A program made the position numbers and the translations under genes. Below, piece by piece: positions 1 to 10,205 of a stretch of 10,205 bases of DNA. Every line of letters begins with the position of its first letter. The stretch's first letter is position 1. This stretch comes from a virus (taxonomy: Duplodnaviria > Heunggongvirae > Uroviricota > Caudoviricetes): IMG/VR virus record IMGVR_UViG_2724679140_000003, positions 1 to 10,205 of that record. One strand, given 5' to 3'. The notes under the pieces are model-generated. The model made no database searches. It had not been told where the DNA came from and saw only the letters and a list, made by a program, of their open reading frames with translations.

Positions 1-345
1 GGCGGTGCGCATAGTCTCGTCACGATAGATGATCGGGGATTCAGTAACATTCACGCCGGAAGTGAACTCAAACAGGGTTCTGGCGTCGTTCTCGTACTGT
101 TTTCCCCAGGCCAGCGCCTTAGCGTTAACTTCCGGAGCCACACCGGTGCAAACCTCGGCAAGTAGGGTGTGGAAGTAGGACATTTTCATGTCAGGCCATT
201 TCTTTCCGGAGCGGGGTTTTGCTATCACGTTGTGAACTTCTGAAGCTGTGATGACGCCGAGCCGTAATTTGTGCCACGCATCATCCCCCTGCACGATAGC
301 TCTCACGTCGATCCCAGTACGCTGCAGGATAATGTTCGGTGTCAT
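1..345 (-). CDS. exo: Lambda-type exonuclease (Red alpha), N-terminal part; gene continues past the window edge
   Basis: Reverse-strand translation from ATG at 345..343 reads [115 protein letters not shown], which matches the lambda Exo N-terminus as I recall it. About 115 codons are present, open to position 1. The ATG overlaps the in-frame bet stop (ATGA) as in lambda. Confidence 0.9.
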
Positions 346-412
346 ATTGCCACCTTCTGCTCTGCGGCTTTCTGTTTCAGGAATCCAAGAGCTTTCACTG
401 CTTCGGCCTGTT

Positions 413-1126
413 TCAGTTCTGACAATGCATGAATGTCGCGGCGAAATATCTGGGAACAGAGCGGCAATAAGTCGTCATCCCATGTTTTATCCGGGCGATC
501 AGCAGAGTGTTAATCTCCTGCATGGTTTCATCGTTAACCGGAGTGATGTCGCGTTCCGGCTGATGTTCTGCAGTGCATGCGGTATTTTCGACAATGCGCT
601 CGGCTTCATCCTTGTCATAGATACCAGCAAATCCGAAGGCCAGACGGGCACACTGAATCATGGCTTTATGCCGTAACATCCGTTTGGGATGCGACTGCCA
701 TGGTCCGATGATTTCTTTGCCTTCTCGGGTTTTGAATGGTTCGCGACGGCACTCATCCATCCACTCGGTAACGCAGATCGGATGATTACGGTCCTTGCGG
801 TAAATCCGGCATGTACATGATTCATTGTCCTGCTCAAAGTCCATGCCATCAAACTGCTGGTTTTCATTTATGATGCGGGACCAGCCATCAACGCCCACCA
901 CCGGAACAATGCCGTTCTGCTTATCAGGGAAGGCGTAAATCTCTTTCGTCCACGGATTAAGTCCGTACTGGTTGGCGACGATCAGCAGCGCGATGAATTG
1001 CGCATCGCTGGCATTACCTTTAAATGCCGTCTGGCGAAGAGTGGCGATCAGTTCCTGCGGGTCGACAGAATCCATGCCGACGCGTTCAGCCAGCTTCCCG
1101 GCCAGTGTTGCAAGTGCTGTACTCAT
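413..1126 (-). CDS. bet: Red beta (Bet) single-strand annealing protein, C-terminus altered by an apparent 1-bp deletion (likely pseudogene or truncated variant)
   Basis: The 237-aa ORF starts [26 protein letters not shown] and tracks recalled lambda Bet almost residue for residue up to [12 protein letters not shown], then reads [26 protein letters not shown] and stops. The other frame from about 503 down to 342 still encodes a Bet-like tail ([20 protein letters not shown]...[11 protein letters not shown]) ending in TGA that overlaps the exo ATG. Start ATG at 1126..1124 is preceded by GAGG. Confidence 0.85.
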
Positions 1127-1131
1127 TCGTT

Positions 1132-1431
1132 TTATACCTCTGAATCAATATCAACCTGGTGATGAGCAATGGTTTCAACCATGTACCGGATGTGCTCCGC
1201 CACGCGTTCTTGAAATTCAACATCGTCATCAAATGCGCGACTGATTGCCTGTTTGCTGGCACCGTGGCGTTGCAAATGGTCGATGCAGAGCGATTCAAAC
1301 AGGTGCTGGGGCAGACCTTTTTCCAGGTCGTCCGCCAGCTCCGTTTCTTTTTCTTCGCGAACGATTTGCTGGTAGTGGCGTGACCATGCCTGCTCTTCAA
1401 TGCGATCAAAAATTGGGCATGTACTCATCAT
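1132..1431 (-). CDS. gam: Gam-like RecBCD inhibitor (short GamS-type form, 99 aa)
   Basis: Translation [99 protein letters not shown] matches recalled lambda Gam closely from the GamS start onward. Sits directly upstream of bet on the same strand. GGGG-rich SD before the ATG. Confidence 0.9.
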
Positions 1432-3379
1432 CCGTCACCCCAAAATTTTCAAGTTTGTTTGCAATCATCATTGCAATACCCGGAATTAATGGCGCTGAGG
1501 CTATACCCGCAGGATTTGCACATAAACCGTAAACCGCTGCAATCACCACTTGTCTTTTCCAGTCGAGTTTTTCTAATGATGAAGCTGCTGCTTCGCCAGT
1601 TTCATCACTGCAATCGCGATGCGGATCGCTGCCATCGTTCTCCTTGTGCGGATGTTCAGCACCTTCCATTTCCTCCAGACCTTTTTCCTGATATTCATTC
1701 TGATTTTCTTCATTAAAGGTTTTCTGATACGTTGCGTCGCCCATCACCGCACCACAGTCAGGGCAGTTATCCCCGCCAGTCTGACCGCAGGCATTGCAGA
1801 CTATTTCCGGTTCCTGTTGCACTACTGGCTCAGGTTGTTTCGCATCCGGGCTGATTTTTTCCGTTTCTGGCTGGTTCTGGTACACAGAATCGCGAGTCTG
1901 GATCCCCTTAACCCATTTCGGATCGTTCGGGTCGCTAATTCCGTCAACAAATTCACCACGTGATGCAGCAAGCAATTTATCGGCATCGACAGGATTTTTT
2001 GATGGAATGTTTTTCCGGGCTTCATGGAGTTCTGCCCGCTTTTTCTGGTATTCCGCTTCAACAGGGTTTACCTGTGACTGAGCATCCAGCGGCTGCGTGT
2101 TCTGATGATGTTCAGCTGCATCCGGTTCCACTGTTTCAGCCGTTGCCTGTTCATGTGCCATTGCGCCAGATGGTTGCGGTTTTTCTTCATCATCCTGTTT
2201 TTCTTCTTCTGTTACACGCTGCGGCATCGGGGCAGAGGAGCGACCGCAGGCAATATCCACGATTTCCGGATCAGGGTTGGCATGATCGGTTTCAGTCAGT
2301 ACTTTGTTCAGATATTCAGTGACGTGCGCGGGGATGACCTCGATCCCAATTGGTGCTTCTTTTACGGACGCAACCACGATGGCGCGGGAATAATCCAGCC
2401 CGCCAGGCATGGTGATGAATTTGTCGCGGAAAACAGAAAAGGGCGGTTTATTTTCAGCGATAATTTCCTCAATGCGTTTAGCGTGTGCCGGATGAAGGTT
2501 ATAGATGTCCACGTCCATTGAACGGGCCAGTACGCCAGTGGCTACATCGCGCGCCAGTGACGTCAGATCGTGGACGAAACCTTTGCCGCGATCGGTGAGG
2601 TTCCCGCCGCCAGCATTAGCACCGGAAGCCGTGCGGGTGATACGTGAAACACGATTTCCTTTCATCCACTCTTTTGTCAGCAGACCGCGATCGGTGTAGT
2701 CAGTGCCCAGGTATGCTTCGAAAAAAGCAGTCATCAGCCCCAGGCTTGAATTGCCTGGATTAGGGAAAACTCTGTCAGTATCACGCACCAGTTTGTGGAG
2801 ATCGCGAATTTCCAGCGGATCGAGCAGGCTGGTTTTGTGGGAAACAGCCAGGGCAGTAACAGCTGGTAGTTCTTCAGCTCGTGCAATGTGTAATGCCTGG
2901 AGTTCGTCGCGTGAAACGTGCGTTACCGGTTTTTCGCTGCCGTGTTGAGCAAGCCAGCGAATGGGCAGCTCCTGACCGGAAATCGGGAGTAGCATATTCT
3001 CCTCAATCTCCGTCATGTCTTCGCCATTAACATTGGTATTGTCAGTGCTGGCTGGTTTGTCCTGCGCAGAGGATGAGGGCGCGATAAATACCATTGTGAT
3101 GCCATCTTCCCCGCCTTTTTCGTAACGGTTGCAGAATTCCGTATCAAATACGCCTTCTGGTGGAAGGTCATCAACAACGGGCAAATTGACGCGAACAGGT
3201 TTTTTAAAGTCATCTTCATCGTAGCCAGCATCGTCAATCGCAACAGCACCACGGGAGATGGCAATGGATAATTTTTTCGCTTCAGCCCAGTAGAAACCGC
3301 CTTTAATACCGAGACGTTTTCTTACTTTGTCATTTTTTGCTTCGTAATACAGTGAGTAAACTTGTTTATCGGTGCTCAT
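1406..3379 (-). CDS. Large hypothetical protein (657 aa): acidic low-complexity segments, CxxC-x7-CxxC zinc knuckle, hydrophobic C-terminal segment; function unknown
   Basis: Uninterrupted 1974-nt ORF. ATG at 3379..3377 preceded by TGAGG about 9 nt upstream. Zinc knuckle [16 protein letters not shown] at about residues 528-543. Hydrophobic stretch [30 protein letters not shown] near the C-terminus. The 3' end overlaps the gam start by 26 nt. No Walker A or other catalytic motif recognised by eye. Plus-strand ORFs across this span are antisense and spurious. Confidence 0.85.
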
Positions 3380-3447
3380 TGTTTTTTAACCTCAACTCAG
3401 ATTAAAATTAATGCGAGTGATGAATAAATGTCCCAGGTTCTTCACTC

Positions 3448-3479
3448 AGGCCTGCACAGTGTGCAGGCTTTCTTTTTTT
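3448..3479 (+). terminator. Intrinsic-terminator-like hairpin oriented for plus-strand transcription
   Basis: Perfect 8-bp stem GCCTGCAC / GTGCAGGC (3450-3457 / 3461-3468) with 3-nt loop AGT, followed on the plus strand by TTTCTTTTTTT. On the minus strand the hairpin is preceded by an A-tract and followed by non-U sequence, so it is not a canonical terminator for the surrounding minus-strand genes. Confidence 0.45.
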
Positions 3480-3754
3480 CAGATTTCACCTTTTAATTTC
3501 ATTGCAATCAGAGTTGCCAGAAATTCGGCTTTTTTTTCTGCGGGCAGATTCTTTCCTATGTGCACCAGACACATTTTTTTAACACCATCGTTAAGTGTTT
3601 TAACGTTGCCTGATGGACCGTCGATATCAACCACAGTGAATGGGGTTTCTTTATTTTCTGTTTTAATCACATAGCCAATACGCTTTCCTTCCAGATTAAC
3701 CTCATGAACAATGTCATCAGTAGTAACAACAGTGGCTTCATAACTGGTAATCAT
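3479..3754 (-). CDS. Small hypothetical protein (91 aa)
   Basis: ATG at 3754..3752 is preceded by a strong SD (TAAGGAGAAAAAC then ATG). Translation MITSYEATVVTTDDIVHEVNLEGKRIGYVIKTENKETPFTVVDIDGPSGNVKTLNDGVKKMCLVHIGKNLPAEKKAEFLATLIAMKLKGEI. The ORF-track start at 3802 has no SD. No family recognised. Confidence 0.75.
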   Translation of the reverse strand: MITSYEATVVTTDDIVHEVNLEGKRIGYVIKTENKETPFTVVDIDGPSGNVKTLNDGVKKMCLVHIGKNLPAEKKAEFLATLIAMKLKGEI

Positions 3755-3828
3755 GTTTTTCTCCTTAATTAAGGTTGAGAGAATCCCTGCCATTGCTGGC
3801 ATAAATTCAGTTTCGAATAGTCAGTTAA

Positions 3829-4110
3829 TTAAAGTTCGTGTGCCATCTGGTCTTTTTCGGCACATTGCTTACAGCAGTATTTATGCTCCTTACGTGCAAT
3901 AAGGGAACCGTGCATATAAATAATTTCAGCAGTAAAGGCTTTTTCAGGTTCAATTTGTTTATTACAGAGCGTATATGCACAGGGAATTAAATCCGGGTCC
4001 CCCTTTTGCTGGAGGATTTTTCTGATTCTCCACAGCCATTTTTTAATTCCGGTGTGACTGATGGTCTGCCTGGAGGCAGGCGTAAAACAATAATCAAGCA
4101 TGGGGTTCAT
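3829..4110 (-). CDS. Small cysteine-rich hypothetical protein (about 93 aa), possible zinc-binding
   Basis: ORF MDMNPMLDYCFTP...KYCCKQCAEKDQMAHEL with seven Cys. The GGAG SD at 4122..4119 is too close to the first ATG (4116) but well spaced (8 nt) from the second ATG at 4110, so 4110 is the preferred start. The SD overlaps the stop of the upstream Rha-like gene. Confidence 0.7.
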   Translation of the reverse strand: MNPMLDYCFTPASRQTISHTGIKKWLWRIRKILQQKGDPDLIPCAYTLCNKQIEPEKAFTAEIIYMHGSLIARKEHKYCCKQCAEKDQMAHEL

Positions 4111-4126
4111 ATCCATAGCTCCATTT

Positions 4127-4681
4127 TTATTTTAAGGAAAGCAACTGCTCTACGGTCATATTTTTAATTGCGCTCCGGTTTACAAGAGTCCAGCCTTGTT
4201 TCTTCAGATAAAACTGGAAGGTATCCAGGGTGCAGACCATTGCGCCGTCAGGAACGGTTTCAGTGAATTTGATATTGCCGTGTTCGTCGAGACGGATAAC
4301 CAGGGTGCGTCCGTCCCCGTGAATCATTTTGTCGGGAGACGGGGCGTTATTCTGGCGCAGTTCTGCTTCCATGCGGTCGAACTCAGCAATGTATGCCTCT
4401 TTAAATGCAGCGGCTTTTTTGCCAGTGAAGCCCATCACCAGGAAAACGAAGCCGTTTTTGGTGATTTGGTACATGGGGCGTTTTTCGCCTTTGGCGTCGG
4501 TGTAGGTAACGGGCGTAAAATTGCGCTCGTTAAAATCTTCAGAGCATTCTAGCGTTTCAATTTTGCGCAGAACGTCCTTGTGCATTTTGCGGAAGAACTC
4601 TGCAACCGCAACAGACGTAGTGACAGCGCGACCATTTTCGATGGTTACGTCAGGGTGAGAAAGGGTAGGGATAGTAGCCAT
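4127..4681 (-). CDS. Rha-family phage regulatory protein (184 aa short form; an in-frame upstream start at 4978 would give 283 aa)
   Basis: N-terminal motif RAVTTSVAVAEFFRKMHKDVLRKIE resembles the conserved core of the phage Rha domain (recalled pattern ...VAE.FGKRHDNVLRDI). ATG at 4681..4679 has SD AAGAGG about 8 nt upstream and puts the motif at the usual N-terminal position. The longer in-frame ORF from 4978 contains an intrinsic terminator, so the short form is preferred. Confidence 0.75.
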   Translation of the reverse strand: MATIPTLSHPDVTIENGRAVTTSVAVAEFFRKMHKDVLRKIETLECSEDFNERNFTPVTYTDAKGEKRPMYQITKNGFVFLVMGFTGKKAAAFKEAYIAEFDRMEAELRQNNAPSPDKMIHGDGRTLVIRLDEHGNIKFTETVPDGAMVCTLDTFQFYLKKQGWTLVNRSAIKNMTVEQLLSLK

Positions 4682-4847
4682 AATGGCAGCCTCTTGGTTA
4701 AGTATTAATAACTCACCACCAAGGTTTTCCACGACCATAAGGGTGGTGAGACGTACAGGGGTGGAAATACCGGTCAACCAAGAATCCGGCCAGCCTTGCA
4801 GCTGCCCTGCACGCCCCACCATAATCTGAATGTGGCTGTGCTTGACG

Positions 4848-4873
4848 CATAAAAAAACCGCCTGAGCGCGGTT
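4848..4873 (-). terminator. Intrinsic terminator (minus strand)
   Basis: Minus-strand RNA reads AACCGC-GCUCAG-GCGGUU followed by UUUUUAUG: a 6-bp stem, 6-nt loop and 7-U tract counting the stem Us. Lies between the DicF-like element and the Rha-like gene start. Confidence 0.5.
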
Positions 4874-5146
4874 ATGCGCTTGATTGAATTCCGGGTTTCC
4901 ACGCCCGGCACCCGTTTTATGAGGTGCAGGTGCACTATAATTCCACCCGTTCTGGTTTTCAATAGCTACATTCAACATTTTCTCTACCTTTCATCACCGA
5001 AGTGAACTTTGTTGATGCGGTGCCTGGTGCCTCCAGGTGACGTTAACCAGTTAACAATTAACGCCGGATAATCCACCCATAACACTGATGCTTTTAACTG
5101 TTCCGCGTGCGCTTAGCCGCATTCACCGCATCACAAAATTCACTTT

Positions 5147-5215
5147 AAAAAGGGCGGACATCAGCCGAACTTCAAGAAAAAAACTGATGCCGCCAAGACT
5201 ACACACAGCAGTGTT
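5147..5215 (-). ncRNA. DicF-like small RNA with terminator hairpin (5' end uncertain)
   Basis: Minus strand reads ...CUGCUGUGUGUAGUCUUGGCGGCAUCAGUUUUUUUCUUGAAGUUCGGCUGAUGUCCGCCCUUUUU. Long hairpin GGCGGCAUCAG / CUGAUGUCCGCC (plus-strand 5153..5194) followed by a U-tract. The segment UUGGCGG(C)AUCAGUUUU and the CCGCCC-UUUUU 3' end match E. coli DicF as I recall it. Position after the repressor and tiny ORFs mirrors the Qin dicA-ydfABC-dicF layout. Confidence 0.45.
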
Positions 5216-5392
5216 GTTATTCACAACCGGAGGCGCACTCCCACCATTTAAATTTAACAGACAAGACCGACTCTTTATGGATACCGGAAATGCGCCTTCG
5301 TGTTGTGCCCGGTTTTATTTCACCACCTCCGGGCTTTGGTGGCCTCGGCTATACCCCTACAGCAAGAATATTGAATTAATCCAATAAATGGT

Positions 5393-5545
5393 TTAGCTGG
5401 TATTTTTGGCAAGCCAGCGACGTGCGCCAGCTTCGGTTTTAAACGATTTGCTTTTGGTATACGTCATGGCGGTGAACGTTCCATCCTGGTTGGGGAACAC
5501 GCCACACACCAGGGATTCGTTGTTGCCGAGGTCGATTTTTTGCAT
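5393..5545 (-). CDS. Small hypothetical protein (50 aa), YdaF/YdfA-like position in the operon
   Basis: ATG at 5545..5543 preceded by SD GAGGG. Translation MQKIDLGNNESLVCGVFPNQDGTFTAMTYTKSKSFKTEAGARRWLAKNTS. Length and position resemble the tiny genes following racR or dicA in Rac and Qin; sequence identity not verified. The ORF-track version (87 aa from 5656) runs through the upstream gene in another frame. Confidence 0.6.
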   Translation of the reverse strand: MQKIDLGNNESLVCGVFPNQDGTFTAMTYTKSKSFKTEAGARRWLAKNTS

Positions 5546-5556
5546 TTTGGGAACCC

Positions 5557-5691
5557 TCACATCTTGTTGTTGCGGATAGAGGCTTCTGCCTGCCAGAGAT
5601 CCCAGTCGTTGCTGCGTAGAGCCTGTACAGCTTGGCTGTAAGTGATGCCGCAACAATCCATCAAATACTGAACTACTTCGTAATGCACCAT
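5557..5691 (-). CDS. Small hypothetical protein (44 aa), YdaG/YdfB-like position; not in the supplied ORF track
   Basis: ATG at 5691..5689 preceded by strong SD (AAAGGGAGAGAUAAA then AUG). Translation MVHYEVVQYLMDCCGITYSQAVQALRSNDWDLWQAEASIRNNKM. Stop TGA at 5559..5557 overlaps the SD of the next gene, suggesting translational coupling. Confidence 0.6.
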   Translation of the reverse strand: MVHYEVVQYLMDCCGITYSQAVQALRSNDWDLWQAEASIRNNKM

Positions 5692-5757
5692 TTTATCTCT
5701 CCCTTTAACGCCGGGTGGCGGAACTAAAACCTACAGCGCCGTGCTGTTCTTGATAGA

Positions 5758-5786
5758 ATATTAGTAACACGGATATTTTAAGTCAA
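5758..5786 (-). promoter_or_regulatory. Candidate sigma70 promoter for the leftward early operon
   Basis: Minus strand: -35 TTGACT (5786..5781), 17-nt spacer, -10 TAATAT (5763..5758). Lies downstream of the repressor terminator and about 65 nt upstream of the 44-aa gene. Confidence 0.45.
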
Positions 5787-5883
5787 CAGTATGGCGTATG
5801 ATATTTTTGATTTAGTAACTATGTAAATGTTTTTTCAAGGGAAAAATATTAGTTATACAGCTGATTTTCAGAAGTTATGGCAC

Positions 5884-5913
5884 AAAAAAACCGACTAAGA
5901 CGTCGGTTTTTTG
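5884..5913. terminator. Bidirectional intrinsic terminator downstream of the repressor gene
   Basis: AAAAAAA-CCGAC-UAAGAC-GUCGG-UUUUUUG: stem AACCGAC / GTCGGTT (5889-5895 / 5902-5908), 6-nt loop, A7 tract upstream and T6 tract downstream. About 25 nt past the repressor stop on the minus strand. Confidence 0.6.
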
Positions 5914-5938
5914 TTGTGGATGGGGTAGTGAGTGGTGG

Positions 5939-6400
5939 CTACTGGTTACGTTTCTTTAGTGCCAGCATGTTCTCGAAGGCTTCCTCGTAGAGCTTGTTTA
6001 GTCCACGTAGCTGGTTAAGGAGTTTGGCTTTTTCTGACGCAGGTAGAATCTCGAAGAGGTTAAGTAACTCAGCCTGTTCTTCATTGACCAGCCTCCATCC
6101 TTTGCCTGAAAAGCTATCATCATAAGTATCTGATGATCTTACATAATTCATTAAGTCTTTAAGGTCTTCTCGAATGTCCTCTGGTTTTACCTTTAACAGA
6201 GCCGCAAATTTTAGCGCAGCGTCGGTATTTACCGGTATCTTGCCGTTCAGATACTGGCTAACGGTGCCTTGAGATTCGAATCCCAACAACTCAGCCGCCA
6301 GCTCTTGAGTCAGCTTCAGCTCTTTTTTTCTTGCATTCCATGCGGCTTTTAAATTCTTGCTCGCTTCTGGAGTTGCAATCACTTCGCGTGTTTTTTTCAT
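5939..6400 (-). CDS. DicA/RacR-type prophage repressor (XRE-family HTH, 153 aa, no S24 peptidase domain)
   Basis: HTH segment LTQELAAELLGFESQGTVSQYLNGKIPVNTDAALKFAALLKV. C-terminal segment EEQAELLNLFEILPASEKAKLLNQLRGLNKLYEEAFENMLALKKRN resembles the recalled DicA C-terminus. Divergent from a Cro-like gene. Weak or absent SD. Confidence 0.85.
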   Translation of the reverse strand: MKKTREVIATPEASKNLKAAWNARKKELKLTQELAAELLGFESQGTVSQYLNGKIPVNTDAALKFAALLKVKPEDIREDLKDLMNYVRSSDTYDDSFSGKGWRLVNEEQAELLNLFEILPASEKAKLLNQLRGLNKLYEEAFENMLALKKRNQ

Positions 6401-6448
6401 ACATAGAGTTTATTTGTTTTACCAATATTATCAAAGATAGTCTGACTG

Positions 6449-6477
6449 TTGATCTTTAAAATTAGTGGGGCTAATAT
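6449..6477 (+). promoter_or_regulatory. Candidate rightward early promoter within the divergent repressor/cro intergenic region
   Basis: -35 TTGATC (6449-6454), 17-nt spacer, -10 TAATAT (6472-6477), about 30 nt upstream of the cro-like start. Imperfect inverted repeat TCAAAGAT (6431-6438) / ATCTTTAA (6452-6459) overlaps the -35 and may be an operator. Confidence 0.5.
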
Positions 6478-6507
6478 TTGCTCGAGGCATAACGTAGAAG
6501 GTTGGCT

Positions 6508-6783
6508 ATGAACTTAAGAGACTATTTAAAAGAGAAACATATCACCCAGTTACAGTTTGGGAAGCTAACGGGTTTATCTCAGGTGCATGTAAGTCGAGTG
6601 CTGGGGGGCTATGAAAGATTCAGCCCTGAAAAAGCATTACGTGTTGCTGAAGTAACGAATTTCGAGGTTACACCTCATGAACTCCGGCCTGATATCTACC
6701 CGAATCCGACCGATGGTTTACCTGTTGGATGTAAGGCTAACACACAAAATGCACAGGAGTTGATTCATGAAAATCAGGCATGA
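6508..6783 (+). CDS. Cro-like regulator, YdaS/DicC family (91 aa from ATG; the ORF track uses TTG at 6502)
   Basis: ATG at 6508 preceded by GAAGG 7 nt upstream. Translation MNLRDYLKEKHITQLQFGKLTGLSQVHVSRVLGGYERFSPEKALRVAEVTNFEVTPHELRPDIYP... has an HTH and the C-terminal pattern typical of YdaS-family proteins. Divergent from the repressor. Confidence 0.85.
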   Translation: MNLRDYLKEKHITQLQFGKLTGLSQVHVSRVLGGYERFSPEKALRVAEVTNFEVTPHELRPDIYPNPTDGLPVGCKANTQNAQELIHENQA

Positions 6784-7189
6784 GCACATCGAATCAGTGT
6801 TGTTAGCCCTAGCCGCTGAAAAAGGGCAGGCGTGGGTCGCTAACGCAATTACTGAAGAATATCTCCGCCAGGGGGGAGGTGAATTGTCTCTGACACCAGG
6901 CAAGGACTGGAACAATCAGCAGAACATCTATCGCCGTTGGTTAAAAGGTGAAACGGAAGCGCAAAGGGAAAAAATTCAGAAGCTGATCCCAGCAATTCTG
7001 GCAATCCTTCCGCGGGAGCTGCGTCACCGACTCTGCATCTTCGATACCCTGGAACGCCGTGCATTACTGGCGGCGCAGGAGGCGTTGAGTACGGCAATTG
7101 ATGCGCATGATGATGCAGTCCAGGCCGTTTACCGGAAAGCGCATTTCAGCGGCGGCGGGTCTTCCGACGATTCTGTCATTGTTCATTAA
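6767..7189 (+). CDS. YdaT-like protein (140 aa), proposed CII-like regulator in Rac-type prophages
   Basis: Starts MKIRHEHIESVLLALAAEKG..., resembling the recalled N-terminus of Rac YdaT (MKIKHEHI...). AGGAG SD 7 nt upstream. Overlaps the cro-like gene by 17 nt. Confidence 0.8.
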   Translation: MKIRHEHIESVLLALAAEKGQAWVANAITEEYLRQGGGELSLTPGKDWNNQQNIYRRWLKGETEAQREKIQKLIPAILAILPRELRHRLCIFDTLERRALLAAQEALSTAIDAHDDAVQAVYRKAHFSGGGSSDDSVIVH

Positions 7190-7252
7190 GCAAAAGTTTC
7201 CATGCTGTTTGTGCTTATTCTAAGCCACCGGGCAGCATCATACGGGGCAATT

Positions 7253-8059
7253 ATGGCCGCATTACCATACATGCAACTGTACATAGCTGATTACCTGGCT
7301 GACACCATGCATTTGTCAGCAGAGGAGCATGGTGCGTATTTGTTGCTGATGTTCAATTACTGGCAAACAGGAAAGCCAATACCTAAAAACAGGCTGGCAA
7401 AAATTGCCCGTCTGACTAACGAGCGATGGGCTGATGTTGAACCATCCTTGCAGGAGTTTTTTTGCGATAACGGCGAGGAATGGGTGCATCTTCGGATTGA
7501 GGAAGATCTGGCATCAGTCAGGGAAAAATTAACCAAAAAATCAGCCGCAGGAAAAGCATCTGTTCAGGCCAGAAGAAGCAGAAAGGAAGCTGATGTTCAA
7601 ACAAAACAAGAGAGAAATTTAACAGGTGTTCAAACAGATGTTGAAGTGGTGTTTGAACATGATGTCAACACAAAGGCAACTAATAAAGATACAGATAAAG
7701 ATCTAAAAACAGATCCCCCCCTAAATCCCCCCCGGGGGAATCGAGGTGTCAAAAAGTTTGACCCTCTGGATATTGTTTTGCCGAACTGGATTTCTGTCTC
7801 GCTTTGGCGTGAGTGGGTTGAATTTCGCCAGGCATTGCGAAAACCGATTCGAACGGAGCAGGGCGCTAACGGGGCGATACGGGAACTGGAAAAATTCCGT
7901 CAGCAGGGTTTTACACCTGAGCAGGTGATTCGACACAGCATCGCCAATGAATACCAGGGCCTGTTCGCGCCGAAAGGTGTTCGGCCTGAGACGTTGCTCC
8001 GACAGGTTAACACCGTCTCGTTGCCGGACAGTGCGATCCCGCCTGGCTTCAGGGGGTAA
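7253..8059 (+). CDS. DUF1376 (YdaU-like) replication initiation protein, O-like (269 aa; alternative in-frame start at 7202)
   Basis: N-terminal MAALPYMQLYIADYLADTMHLSAEEHGAYLLLMFNYWQTGKPIP matches the conserved DUF1376 signature (YM.LYI.DYL.DT..LS.EEHGAYL.L). Followed immediately by a DnaC-like gene. ATG at 7253 has GGGG upstream. Confidence 0.85.
   Translation: MAALPYMQLYIADYLADTMHLSAEEHGAYLLLMFNYWQTGKPIPKNRLAKIARLTNERWADVEPSLQEFFCDNGEEWVHLRIEEDLASVREKLTKKSAAGKASVQARRSRKEADVQTKQERNLTGVQTDVEVVFEHDVNTKATNKDTDKDLKTDPPLNPPRGNRGVKKFDPLDIVLPNWISVSLWREWVEFRQALRKPIRTEQGANGAIRELEKFRQQGFTPEQVIRHSIANEYQGLFAPKGVRPETLLRQVNTVSLPDSAIPPGFRG
7556..7672. repeat. Iteron-like repeats inside the DUF1376 gene followed by an AT-rich stretch: candidate replication origin
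   Basis: Repeats of about 10 bp related to TGTTCAAACA at roughly 34-35 bp spacing: cTGTTCAggc (7560), gaTGTTCAAACA (7592), ggTGTTCAAACA (7626), inverted TGTTTGAACA (7651), gaTGTCAACA (7661), plus ggTGTCAAAAA further on at 7747. AT-rich 7672-7712 follows. Confidence 0.4.
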
Positions 8060-8065
8060 CAGACC

Positions 8066-8812
8066 ATGAAAAATATTGCGACAGGAGGCGTTCTGGAGCG
8101 TATCCGCAGACTGACCCCACCACATGTAACCGCCCCATTCAGAACGGTTGCGGAGTGGCGCGAGTGGCAACTTGCTGAAGGCCAGAAACGTAGTGAGGAG
8201 ATCAACCGCCTGAATCGCCAGTTGCGGGTGGAAAAAATTCTGAATCGCTCAGGCATCCAGCCGTTGCACCGTAAATGCTCGTTTGCGAATTACCAGGTGC
8301 AGAACGACGGCCAGCGATACGCGTTAAGCCAGGCGAAATCCATCGCCGATGAACTGATGACCGGGTGTACAAATTTTGCGTTCAGCGGAAAACCTGGTAC
8401 CGGGAAGAATCACTTAGCGGCAGCTATCGGGAATCGCCTGCTGAAAGACGGTCAGACAGTGATTGTGGTTACCGTGGCTGATGTTATGAGTGCTCTACAC
8501 GCCAGCTATGACGACGGGCAATCAGGCGAAAAATTTTTGCGGGAACTGTGCCAAGTGGATCTGCTGGTTCTTGATGAAATTGGCATTCAGCGCGAGACAA
8601 AAAACGAGCAGGTGGTGCTGCACCAGATTGTTGATCGCCGGACAGCGTCGATGTGCAGCGTGGGGATGCTGACAAACCTGAACTATGAGGCCATGAAAAC
8701 ATTGCTCGGCGAGAGGATTATAGATCGCATGACCATGAACGGCGGGCGATGGGTGAATTTTAATTGGGAGAGCTGGCGTCCGAATGTCGTCCAGCCAGGA
8801 ATTGCGAAGTGA
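8066..8812 (+). CDS. DnaC-like helicase loader / IstB-like AAA+ ATPase (YdaV-like replication protein, 248 aa)
   Basis: Walker [16 protein letters not shown] and Walker B LLVLDEIG. Recognisable DnaC-family layout. ATG at 8066 with GGGGG SD. Directly downstream of the O-like gene. Confidence 0.9.
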
Positions 8813-8834
8813 TTTTTACCGGGAGGAAATTTTA

Positions 8835-8984
8835 ATGGAAACCGTTTTTGATGCACTGAAAGCAATGGGAAAAGCCACGTCGGTAGAACTGGCTGCGCGA
8901 CTTGATATCAGTCGTGAAGAAGTGCTGAACGAGCTGTGGGAACTGAAAAAGGCTGGATTCGTTGATAAAAGCGCGTACACCTGA
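8835..8984 (+). CDS. Small winged-helix-like protein (49 aa)
   Basis: Strong SD GGGAGG 8 nt before ATG at 8835. Translation [49 protein letters not shown] looks like an HTH. Ends with TGA at 8982-8984, in frame with the next ORF. Confidence 0.6.
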
Positions 8985-8987
8985 CGT

Positions 8988-9596
8988 GTGGCCGATAACA
9001 ACGTTCAGCAGGAACATCCAGTGCCGGAAGAACAGCCGGAAGAAATCGCCACGGCAACAGTAGCGAAAATCTCAGAGTGCGATTTAACCGCGACGATTGA
9101 ACAACGCGGACCACAAACGGCGGATGAACTGGCTACGCTGTTCGGTACCACATCCCGCAAAGTTGCTTCAACGCTGGCAATGGCAATCAGCAAAGGACGC
9201 CTGATTCGCGTAAATCAGAACGGTAAATTTCGTTACTGCATGCCGGGCGGTAATTTACCAGCAGAGCCGAAAGCTGCATCGGTAGCGGAAACTGATGGTA
9301 AAGCCTTTCCTCAGCCTGCATGTGTTGTTTTACCAGTACAGGAGGCTGCAATACAGGAAGAAATTAAAACAGAAACTGTGGCGGACATTGTGCAGCCGCT
9401 GCCATCGTTCACTGAAACGCGAGCAGATGACCTGGTTTTACCATCGCTGCATATGGCAAACCGCGAACTGCGTCGGGCGAAAAGTCATGTCCAGAAGTGG
9501 GAGCGAGTCTGCGCCGCGCTGCGTGAGCTGAACAAGCACCAGGATATTGTCCGTCAGATTGTCGATTCCTCCAGTCGTATTGTGTCGGAAAAGTGA
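8988..9596 (+). CDS. Hypothetical protein (202 aa) with a second HTH-like segment; GTG start, or a readthrough extension of the preceding ORF
   Basis: Long ORF in the same frame as 8835..8984. First codon GTG at 8988 with no convincing SD. Contains [32 protein letters not shown], which resembles the HTH of the upstream 49-aa ORF. Confidence 0.7.
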
Positions 9597-9612
9597 TTCT
9601 AGGGGAGGGCTT

Positions 9613-10035
9613 ATGGCAAAAGTATTAACACAGGAAGAGCGAGAAAAAATTAAAGGGCAGATTGTTGATCTCGTACGCCAGAGCGAGCGAGAGACGTTAC
9701 GACAACTGGAAGCTAAAACAGGCGCGACAAGATATCTGATGAGTGTTCTCGCCAGAGAGCTTGTTGCCAGTGGCGATGTATATAACTCCGGCTACGGGTT
9801 ATTCCCGCCAGAACAGGCTCGTAAGGACTGGCAAAATGCCCGCAAAAAACTATCCAGGGCAAAGGTGAAGAAACCATCTGTGGTTGATCCTGACCTTATC
9901 TGGTCATTACCAGACGGAGAAATACGCCACTACGACAGGCGTCAGAACATAATCTGTAGCGAGTGCCGGAAGAGCGAAGTTATGCAGCGCGTGCTGGCGT
10001 TTTATCAGGGGAATTTTCAGGAGGTGGCACAGTGA
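9613..10035 (+). CDS. Hypothetical protein (140 aa from ATG 9613; the ORF track extends it to 9547)
   Basis: Strong SD GGGGAGGG immediately upstream of ATG 9613. Translation MAKVLTQEEREKIKGQIVDLVRQSERETLRQLEAKTGATRYLMSVLARELVASGDV... No family recognised. Confidence 0.7.
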   Translation: MAKVLTQEEREKIKGQIVDLVRQSERETLRQLEAKTGATRYLMSVLARELVASGDVYNSGYGLFPPEQARKDWQNARKKLSRAKVKKPSVVDPDLIWSLPDGEIRHYDRRQNIICSECRKSEVMQRVLAFYQGNFQEVAQ

Positions 10036-10205
10036 GCGGGATTGACTACCAGGATTTGGCTGCTGCCAACGCTTTCCTGGCGGATGTGCGGGCAGGGGCG
10101 TTTAACGACCTTTGCGCGGCGTTTGTCAGGCACGAAAAAATTGCAGGACTGGGTGATGGCGACACTGTGACGCTTAAGGAAGCGACTGATGCGCTGCTGC
10201 ACTGT
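10032..10205 (+). CDS. Hypothetical protein, 5' part only (runs off window)
   Basis: GTG at 10032 overlaps the preceding stop (GTGA). Open frame to the window end reading MSGIDYQDLAAANAFLADVRAGAFNDLCAAFVRHEKIAGLGDGDTVTLKEATDALLHC. No SD assessed; short and partial. Confidence 0.35.
   Translation, partial: MSGIDYQDLAAANAFLADVRAGAFNDLCAAFVRHEKIAGLGDGDTVTLKEATDALLHC

Follow-up and report, generated by a model that had tools for sequence, protein, structure and literature searches.

A helically phased repeat array inside ydaU is a candidate replication origin of a Rac-type Escherichia coli prophage

Where does a Rac-type prophage begin to replicate? The question is raised by a cluster of short repeats inside ydaU, which encodes a DUF1376 protein and candidate initiator, in a 10,205-nucleotide viral sequence (IMG/VR record IMGVR_UViG_2724679140_000003, positions 1 to 10,205; hereafter the window). 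Gene order and annotation identify this 10.2 kb as the early region of a Rac-type lambdoid prophage of Escherichia coli, with recT, recE, a Rha/Ash gene, a racR-like repressor gene, ydaS, ydaT, ydaU, ydaV (DnaC/IstB-like), a DUF1627 gene and a DUF977 gene in that order. A first-pass annotation had proposed that ydaU contains a lambda-like origin. Our comparative analysis makes it likely that positions 7561-7739 are the replication origin of the prophage, lying within its initiator gene and probably equivalent to oriJ of the K-12 Rac prophage.

Three exact copies of the near-palindromic 10-mer TGTTCAAACA (TGTT-CA-AACA) fit within 66 bp of ydaU, on the plus strand at 7594-7603 (site 0) and 7627-7636 (site 1) and inverted at 7650-7659 (site 3, minus strand; TGTTTGAACA on the plus strand). 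Chance was rejected as an explanation, since in none of 1000 dinucleotide-preserving shuffles of the window did any 10-mer reach three copies within 70 nt, the maximum being two. Degenerate copies with 3-4 mismatches lie on the plus strand at 7561-7570 (TGTTCAGGCC, 33 bp 5' of the first exact copy and reading GTTCAAG in alleles L069 and L076), at 7639-7648 (TGTTGAAGTG, site 2, 12 bp after site 1 and equivalent to GTTGAA in L093, L067 and L002) and at 7663-7672 (TGTCAACACA, site 4, 13 bp after site 3). None of the three is significant by itself, and what places them in the array is solely their phase and their homology with consensus sites in relatives; when up to two mismatches to TGTTCAAACA are allowed, the window has 16 occurrences against 13.7 expected, which is no enrichment. 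The five or six copies first proposed, one of them inverted, thus reduce to three exact ones, including the inverted copy, and a further candidate at 7747 (TGTCAAAAAG) was rejected as lying outside the array. The peptide readings DVQT, GVQT, DVEV and DVNT given for the repeats agree with the translation, whereas the proposed spacing of 34-35 bp gives way to measured distances of 33, 33, 12, 11 and 13 bp, approximately multiples of 11.

Within E. coli, the cores of sites 1 and 3 (7628-7635 and 7651-7658) are unchanged in 43 distinct alleles despite a variable surrounding linker. Other enterobacterial YdaU genes have the homologue of site 1 as their first GTTCAAC site, and the third position, occupied here by the inverted site, is held by GTTTGAAC also in L090, L091, L093 and L103. 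Outside the 10-mer, the 33-bp units are only about 26% alike by our own count, no better than random sequence; as the flanks between copies are unrelated, the 10-mer word is what is conserved, and not a larger duplicated unit.

The same arrangement recurs across the family. YdaU-family loci were drawn from IMG/VR contigs, from phage records and from a set with a single genome for each species, and reduced to 58 non-redundant genes. In the linker that follows a conserved AAGKASA peptide, two to five copies of (C)GTT[C/G]AAC(G) are present in Enterobacteria, Pseudomonas, Achromobacter/Bordetella, Acinetobacter, Azotobacter and various metagenome-assembled genomes, so that the density of GTT[CG]AAC across the 58 loci reaches 5.9 per kb at gene nucleotides 300-480, compared with 0.25 per kb elsewhere (24-fold). 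Successive copies are separated by exact multiples of 11 bp in 23 of 25 cases (11 bp in thirteen, 22 in six, 33 in two, 44 and 55 in one each) and by 34 bp in the other two, and the array of the window keeps the same phase. With spacing by multiples of about 11 bp, all sites face the same side of the helix. The sites occur in all three reading frames and in both orientations, with one gene reading the same DNA word as DRST, TVQR or PLNE; together with the 11-bp period, this indicates that the repeats are not a peptide repeat and were selected as DNA. Equivalent arrays are present at the same place in the gene in propagated phages, namely the Pseudomonas phages UFJF_PfDIW6 and AH02 and the Bordetella phage vB_BaM-IFTN6, and dozens of prophages likewise carry repeat arrays in the linker. 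Functional homologues therefore do not lack the repeats, an absence that the first-pass annotation had named as evidence against an origin. A search of a plasmid collection was uninformative, as YdaU genes there sit mostly on very large replicons.

An AT-rich run had been noted behind the repeats, and this was borne out: the guanine-plus-cytosine (GC) fraction falls to 0.283 at 7650-7709, the minimum of ydaU-ydaV. The AT-rich segment proper, a candidate unwinding element at 7673-7714, has 26% GC by our own count and holds two GATC sites, a degenerate (GATAMA)n tract and the box CAACTAATAAAGATACAGAT (7677-7696), which does not vary among the E. coli alleles examined and can be recognized across genera. 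Among the family loci, the 50 nt that follow the last site have a mean GC of 0.40, compared with 0.54 gene-wide, and are lower in 26 of 26 loci tested (P = 6e-10). This dip usually takes the form of a conserved CAAC(T/G)AATAAAGAT box and, after it, tracts of (GATACA)n or (AACCAG)n that often lead into GATCTAAAAGA and a C5...C5...G5 element. The repeats are thus non-random, and their position, their phasing and their AT-rich neighbor are conserved as DNA features across the family.

In the window, the AT-rich segment leads into a C/G-tract element at 7713-7739 (ATCCCCCCCTAAATCCCCCCCGGGGGA), which consists of two ATCCCCCCC units and a C7G5 palindrome (7727-7739) and marks the start of the part coding for the C-terminal domain. 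Relatives in Achromobacter and Bordetella have this element as well, as does the non-DUF1376 variant L166, and it forms a junction common to genes with unrelated N-terminal domains (N-domains). The C7/C7/G5 tract looks unstable, allele L056 having an extra 12-bp unit (ATCCCCCCCTAA), and a heat-evolved E. coli line gained a frameshift at ydaU codon 178, inside 7713-7739 (PMC10044804). The GATC (Dam) sites lie at 7700-7703 and 7712-7715, and GATCTAAAAGA is conserved in many enterobacterial relatives. On its reverse strand the AT-rich tract reads GATCTGTTTTTAGATC, which by eye loosely resembles the oriC 13-mer GATCTnTTnTTTT. The window shows no enrichment of DnaA-box matches, and the nearest one, at 7747-7755, has one mismatch.

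The type of repeat changes with the N-domain. A Burkholderiales cluster of N-domains has AACCCAG/AACCCAC in place of GTTSAAC, in up to nine copies with 11-bp phase, the AACCCAG type being common to all five nearest neighbors by N-domain sequence, and at this same position the repeats of other N-domain lineages are GCGAACGC or GATGCAA. The YdaU C-terminal domain (residues 173-285), for its part, is also found joined to unrelated N-domains. Phage mEpX1 has it after a lambda-O domain (PF04492), and four classical iterons (TGTCTCnAAnTTAGAGACA) occupy gene nucleotides 355-450, the same relative place; in MN652886 it follows a third, unclassified N-domain, with GCGTTAC/GTAACGC repeats and then the same GATC-CCCCCTAAATCCCCC junction. 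Mosaics found in E. coli show the converse: the N-domain and the array of the window are retained at 93-95% identity, and after about 7698-7713 comes a different C-terminal part, which has a Pfam DnaT domain. The downstream loader of these mosaics is lambda-P-like, in contrast to the DnaC-like YdaV that accompanies the C-domain of the window, so that C-domain and loader are coupled as genomic covariation. Repeat type thus goes with the N-domain and C-part with the loader, which, as far as genomic comparison can tell, is the logic of lambda O. Beside these variants, the YdaU proteins L111-L116 (Kosakonia, Phytobacter, Pseudomonas) have an extra domain after the winged-helix domain (GYVYF...IGYSKNPWxRLxELR; gene nucleotides 300-720) and carry CTACGTAG/GTAGCTAC-type repeats instead of GTTSAAC; the (GATACA)n tract still follows.

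We modeled the protein with AlphaFold2. A single-sequence model of the N-domain was poor (predicted local distance difference test, pLDDT, below 50) and was replaced by one based on an alignment of 99 diverse sequences; since the first homologue set consisted of near-identical E. coli proteins, a profile of distant members was used for this alignment. The resulting model of residues 1-116 (pLDDT 93) comprises four helices, a β hairpin and a long, confidently modeled helix (residues 80-115), a winged-helix topology. Residues 115-166 of the 268-residue form, which follow this helix and contain the array, have pLDDT below 50 in the single-sequence model and are predicted to be unstructured, in line with the interdomain linker first proposed. 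DUF1376 (PF07120) was the only domain detected in the N-domain of the window, which has no match to Phage_rep_O (PF04492), unlike mEpX1 O. Foldseek searches of the PDB returned only weak hits (E of at least 0.02), all of them winged-helix DNA binders, and sequence and profile searches of the PDB with the N-domain gave nothing meaningful. The C-terminus resembles the C-terminal domain of DnaT (phmmer against the PDB: 2ru8, E 0.002; 9zbt, E 0.008), the tail VNTVSxPDSxIPPGFRG being nearly identical, and the mosaic alleles match Pfam DnaT at 1e-17. The C-terminal domain of DnaT forms filaments on single-stranded DNA and marks the helicase-loading site (PMC13377028).

The locus also corresponds to that of the K-12 Rac prophage. 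The order racR-ydaS-ydaT-ydaU-ydaV is common to both, and 7520-7775, which spans the array, differs from MG1655 Rac ydaU at 1 of 256 nt. K-12 coordinates (NC_000913.3) equal window coordinates plus 1413917, which places the repeat array at 1421511-1421576 and the AT-rich tract at 1421590-1421631. Taken together, the phasing in all frames and both orientations, the GC dip in 26 of 26 loci, the covariation of repeats with N-domain and of C-part with loader, and the near-identity with K-12 Rac favor an origin embedded in the initiator gene, and to this extent computational comparison supports the original proposal.

Binding sites could nevertheless serve another purpose. The array may be a set of targets through which YdaU or another phage regulator controls gene expression, by autoregulation or as a roadblock in ydaU-ydaV, with the true oriJ elsewhere, for example in ydaV, a piece of which is amplified by primers described as 'framing oriJ'. 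An extra GTTGAAC upstream, in the DUF1376 coding part, makes looping or regulation conceivable, and regulatory and origin roles need not exclude each other. We nonetheless regard a purely regulatory array as unlikely: an operator would be expected near a promoter and not 340 nt into a gene, the amplified region of ydaV has no notable repeats and is not AT-rich, and a conserved array joined to an AT-rich tract and a C/G palindrome at the domain boundary of an initiator is the layout of the lambda origin. Scans for promoters and terminators returned nothing of relevance close to the array. Alternatively, the main role of the region could be that of a recombination joint favoring the exchange of N- and C-modules among lambdoid replication genes, given that mosaic junctions between alleles mostly cluster at about 7698-7713 and that GATC(T)CCCCCTAAATCCCCC is common to genes with unrelated N-domains. 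Lambdoid phage origins are known module boundaries, and such a joint would be compatible with an origin; as it accounts for the C/G-tract junction but not for lineage-specific, helically phased repeats upstream of it or for the AT dip in distant genera, we consider it quite improbable as the main role.

Two further explanations place the signal in the gene products. The repeats might be a by-product of in-frame duplication in a low-complexity linker (DVQT, GVQT, DVEV, DVNT) with no function as DNA, in keeping with the predicted disorder of the linker and with the four direct copies that share one frame here, 33 bp being 11 codons. This is strongly disfavored by the family, where sites 11 bp apart, which is not a multiple of three, fall in three frames and on both strands and encode different peptides from one word, where the flanks between copies are unrelated and where the word at this place differs from one N-domain lineage to another; we give it hardly any probability. 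It is equally hard to credit that the inverted copies at 7627-7636 and 7650-7659 act as an mRNA hairpin that regulates translation or stability. Folding of 7585-7680 does yield -22.1 kcal/mol (z = -2.3), but the hairpin is not conserved (L106, L107 and L118 have direct copies only), Rfam gives no credible match, no compensatory changes that keep the stem were seen across alleles, and 11-bp phasing is a property of double-stranded DNA. No rival explains phased, lineage-specific repeats together with the AT dip.

Several observations weigh against an origin in ydaU. The exact copies in the window have a 2-bp center (GTT-CA-AAC), compared with the 1-bp center of the family consensus; a few of the 43 alleles have single substitutions in site 0, and within E. 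coli the degenerate copies, sites 2 and 4 among them, are not conserved. The structural similarities of the YdaU domains are modest and form a weak point of the argument, and the Pfam DnaT model (PF17948) has no hit on the C-domain of the window. The primers 'framing oriJ' (De Paepe et al, 2014; PMC3945230 supplement) amplify 8323-8477, inside ydaV, and Rac has been called replication-defective after excision (PMC11014345; bioRxiv 2026.09.06.749655). The amplified segment has no notable repeats and ordinary GC, and on these grounds we rejected the idea that ydaV holds an origin-like structure; for copy-number polymerase chain reaction, a product about 600 bp away from the array serves equally well.

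The literature on oriJ bears on novelty as well as on position. The origin was reportedly mapped by Diaz and Pritchard in 1978-79 and by Potrykus et al. in 2000; the latter reportedly analyzed the oriJ region and noted a lambda-like organization, and part of the origin reading may therefore already be in print. K-12 Rac has been reported to have an active origin, oriJ (PMC3945230). Our literature searches found no accessible paper that locates oriJ at the sequence level. The one set of oriJ primers found maps to ydaV, 0.6 kb downstream, and the identity of the array with oriJ is therefore an inference. No paper in the searchable literature describes DUF1376 as an initiator or mentions its repeats, the function of the family being undiscussed or listed as unknown.

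If the array is an origin, a mechanism for binding, unwinding and loader recruitment can be proposed by analogy with lambda O and DnaT, from which we infer all of its steps. The winged-helix N-domain (DUF1376) of YdaU would bind the near-palindromic sites TGTT-CA-AACA (family consensus GTT-S-AAC), and several initiator molecules would assemble on one face of the helix through sites spaced by roughly multiples of 11 bp, possibly by means of the long helix 80-115. Indirectly, the winged-helix model and the covariation of repeat type with N-domain type speak for such binding. The adjoining 26%-GC segment (7673-7714) would then open, and the DnaT-like C-domain would engage the single strand and recruit DnaB of the host by way of YdaV, the DnaC-like loader whose gene lies directly downstream.

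This scheme shares its layout with the origins of lambda and lambdoid phages. There too the origin lies inside the initiator gene, between a DNA-binding N-domain and a loader-recruiting C-domain (the roles predicted for YdaU), with initiator sites followed by an AT-rich segment and a palindrome and with the loader gene directly downstream; there too the N-domain and its sites move as one specificity module, and mEpX1 represents the classical lambda version joined to a YdaU-like C-domain. Repeated sites do lie between the N- and C-domain coding parts in the 58 loci, and AT-rich segment and palindrome are present as judged by composition. The parallel with lambda drawn in the first-pass annotation thus holds for the layout but not for its components: the N-domain of YdaU is DUF1376 and not Phage_rep_O, its sites are 7-10 bp near-palindromes in mixed orientation at multiples of about 11 bp, in contrast to four 19-bp iterons about 20-24 bp apart, as seen in mEpX1, and YdaV is DnaC/IstB-like, unlike lambda P, although mosaic alleles have P-like partners. 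Classical plasmid iteron origins (RepA, TrfA, RepE), with tandem direct repeats of 17-22 bp and usually DnaA boxes, differ from the window in the length and the mixed orientation of its 7-10 bp sites. Compared with the iterons of lambda or of plasmids, the YdaU sites are far shorter and keep a tighter phase. No sequence similarity to YdaU is detectable in the winged-helix initiator domains of Firmicutes, namely those of RepA_N plasmid initiators and the N-terminal domain of DnaD, which also differ in hosts, C-domain and repeat structure. The succession of a DnaT-like and a DnaC-like gene matches the dnaT-dnaC operon (operon structure: PMC13377028 reference list); DnaT, however, lacks the origin-binding winged-helix domain predicted for YdaU, and PriA and PriB target it to forks and not to a sequence.

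A possible auxiliary site, GTTGAAC at 7436-7442 on the plus strand, lies in the DUF1376 coding part about 160-190 bp upstream of the main array. It belongs to a second, smaller family peak of GTT[CG]AAC at gene nucleotides 180-210 (19 hits in 58 loci, often two sites 11 bp apart), which falls on the codons D-V-E-x and x-L-N-E; the conserved leucine is TTG in 24 of 50 loci, compared with about 20% gene-wide. As the peptide is also conserved there, the evidence that this may be a further initiator site is suggestive only.

The gene itself is annotated in RefSeq on the plus strand from ATG 7202 (285 residues), whereas distant homologues all begin at MAALPY, which corresponds to ATG 7253 (268 residues; 7253-8059), and this downstream ATG may be the true start. 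The adjacent ydaV (8066-8812, plus strand) encodes a DnaC/IstB-like helicase loader (Pfam IstB_IS21, 2e-19, with a DnaA ATPase domain; PHROG 50, DnaC-like helicase loader), the presumed partner of the YdaU C-terminal domain. In several other DUF1376 proteins (P0141, P0159, P0161, P0171, P0208, P0227, P0229 and P0235), the polypeptide also includes HNH endonuclease domains (PF01844, PF14279). The ydaU gene is disrupted in some genomes: L088 and L089 (E. coli ECMA0423 and Shigella flexneri) lose homology at window position 7665, inside the array, and in O157:H7 F3113 (hit H3) the gene is split by an IS1203-family element. The segment 6700-8900 is 100% identical to one E. coli chromosome; its other matches are mostly 90-99% identical, and of 5426 complete E. 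coli genomes 1833 have a match. The interval of the window from recE to the repressor gene (3400-6400) holds a Rha/Ash-family gene on the minus strand (4127-4978), where K-12 Rac has racC, ydaE, kilR and sieB; the element is therefore a relative of Rac with a different early-left region.

Our analysis provides a sequence-level candidate for the Rac origin oriJ, which has been known from genetics since the late 1970s, and gives DUF1376/YdaU a predicted function as an origin-binding winged-helix initiator domain. The lambda layout of sites, AT tract and palindrome at an initiator domain boundary appears to be reused with at least three unrelated N-domains and several types of site, so that origins could be predicted in many prophages, among them the Rac-like elements that are common in Shiga-toxin-producing E. 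coli. More tentatively, YdaU/DUF1376 could be a large family of phage initiators across Proteobacteria, with 7-bp palindromic sites once per 11-bp turn inside the initiator gene, and the cellular dnaT-dnaC pair might be a domesticated module of the YdaU-YdaV type that has lost its origin-binding domain. This family-wide generalization and the link to DnaT are the more novel part of the proposal; through its DnaT-like C-domain, YdaU would connect phage initiation to the replication-restart primosome of the host.

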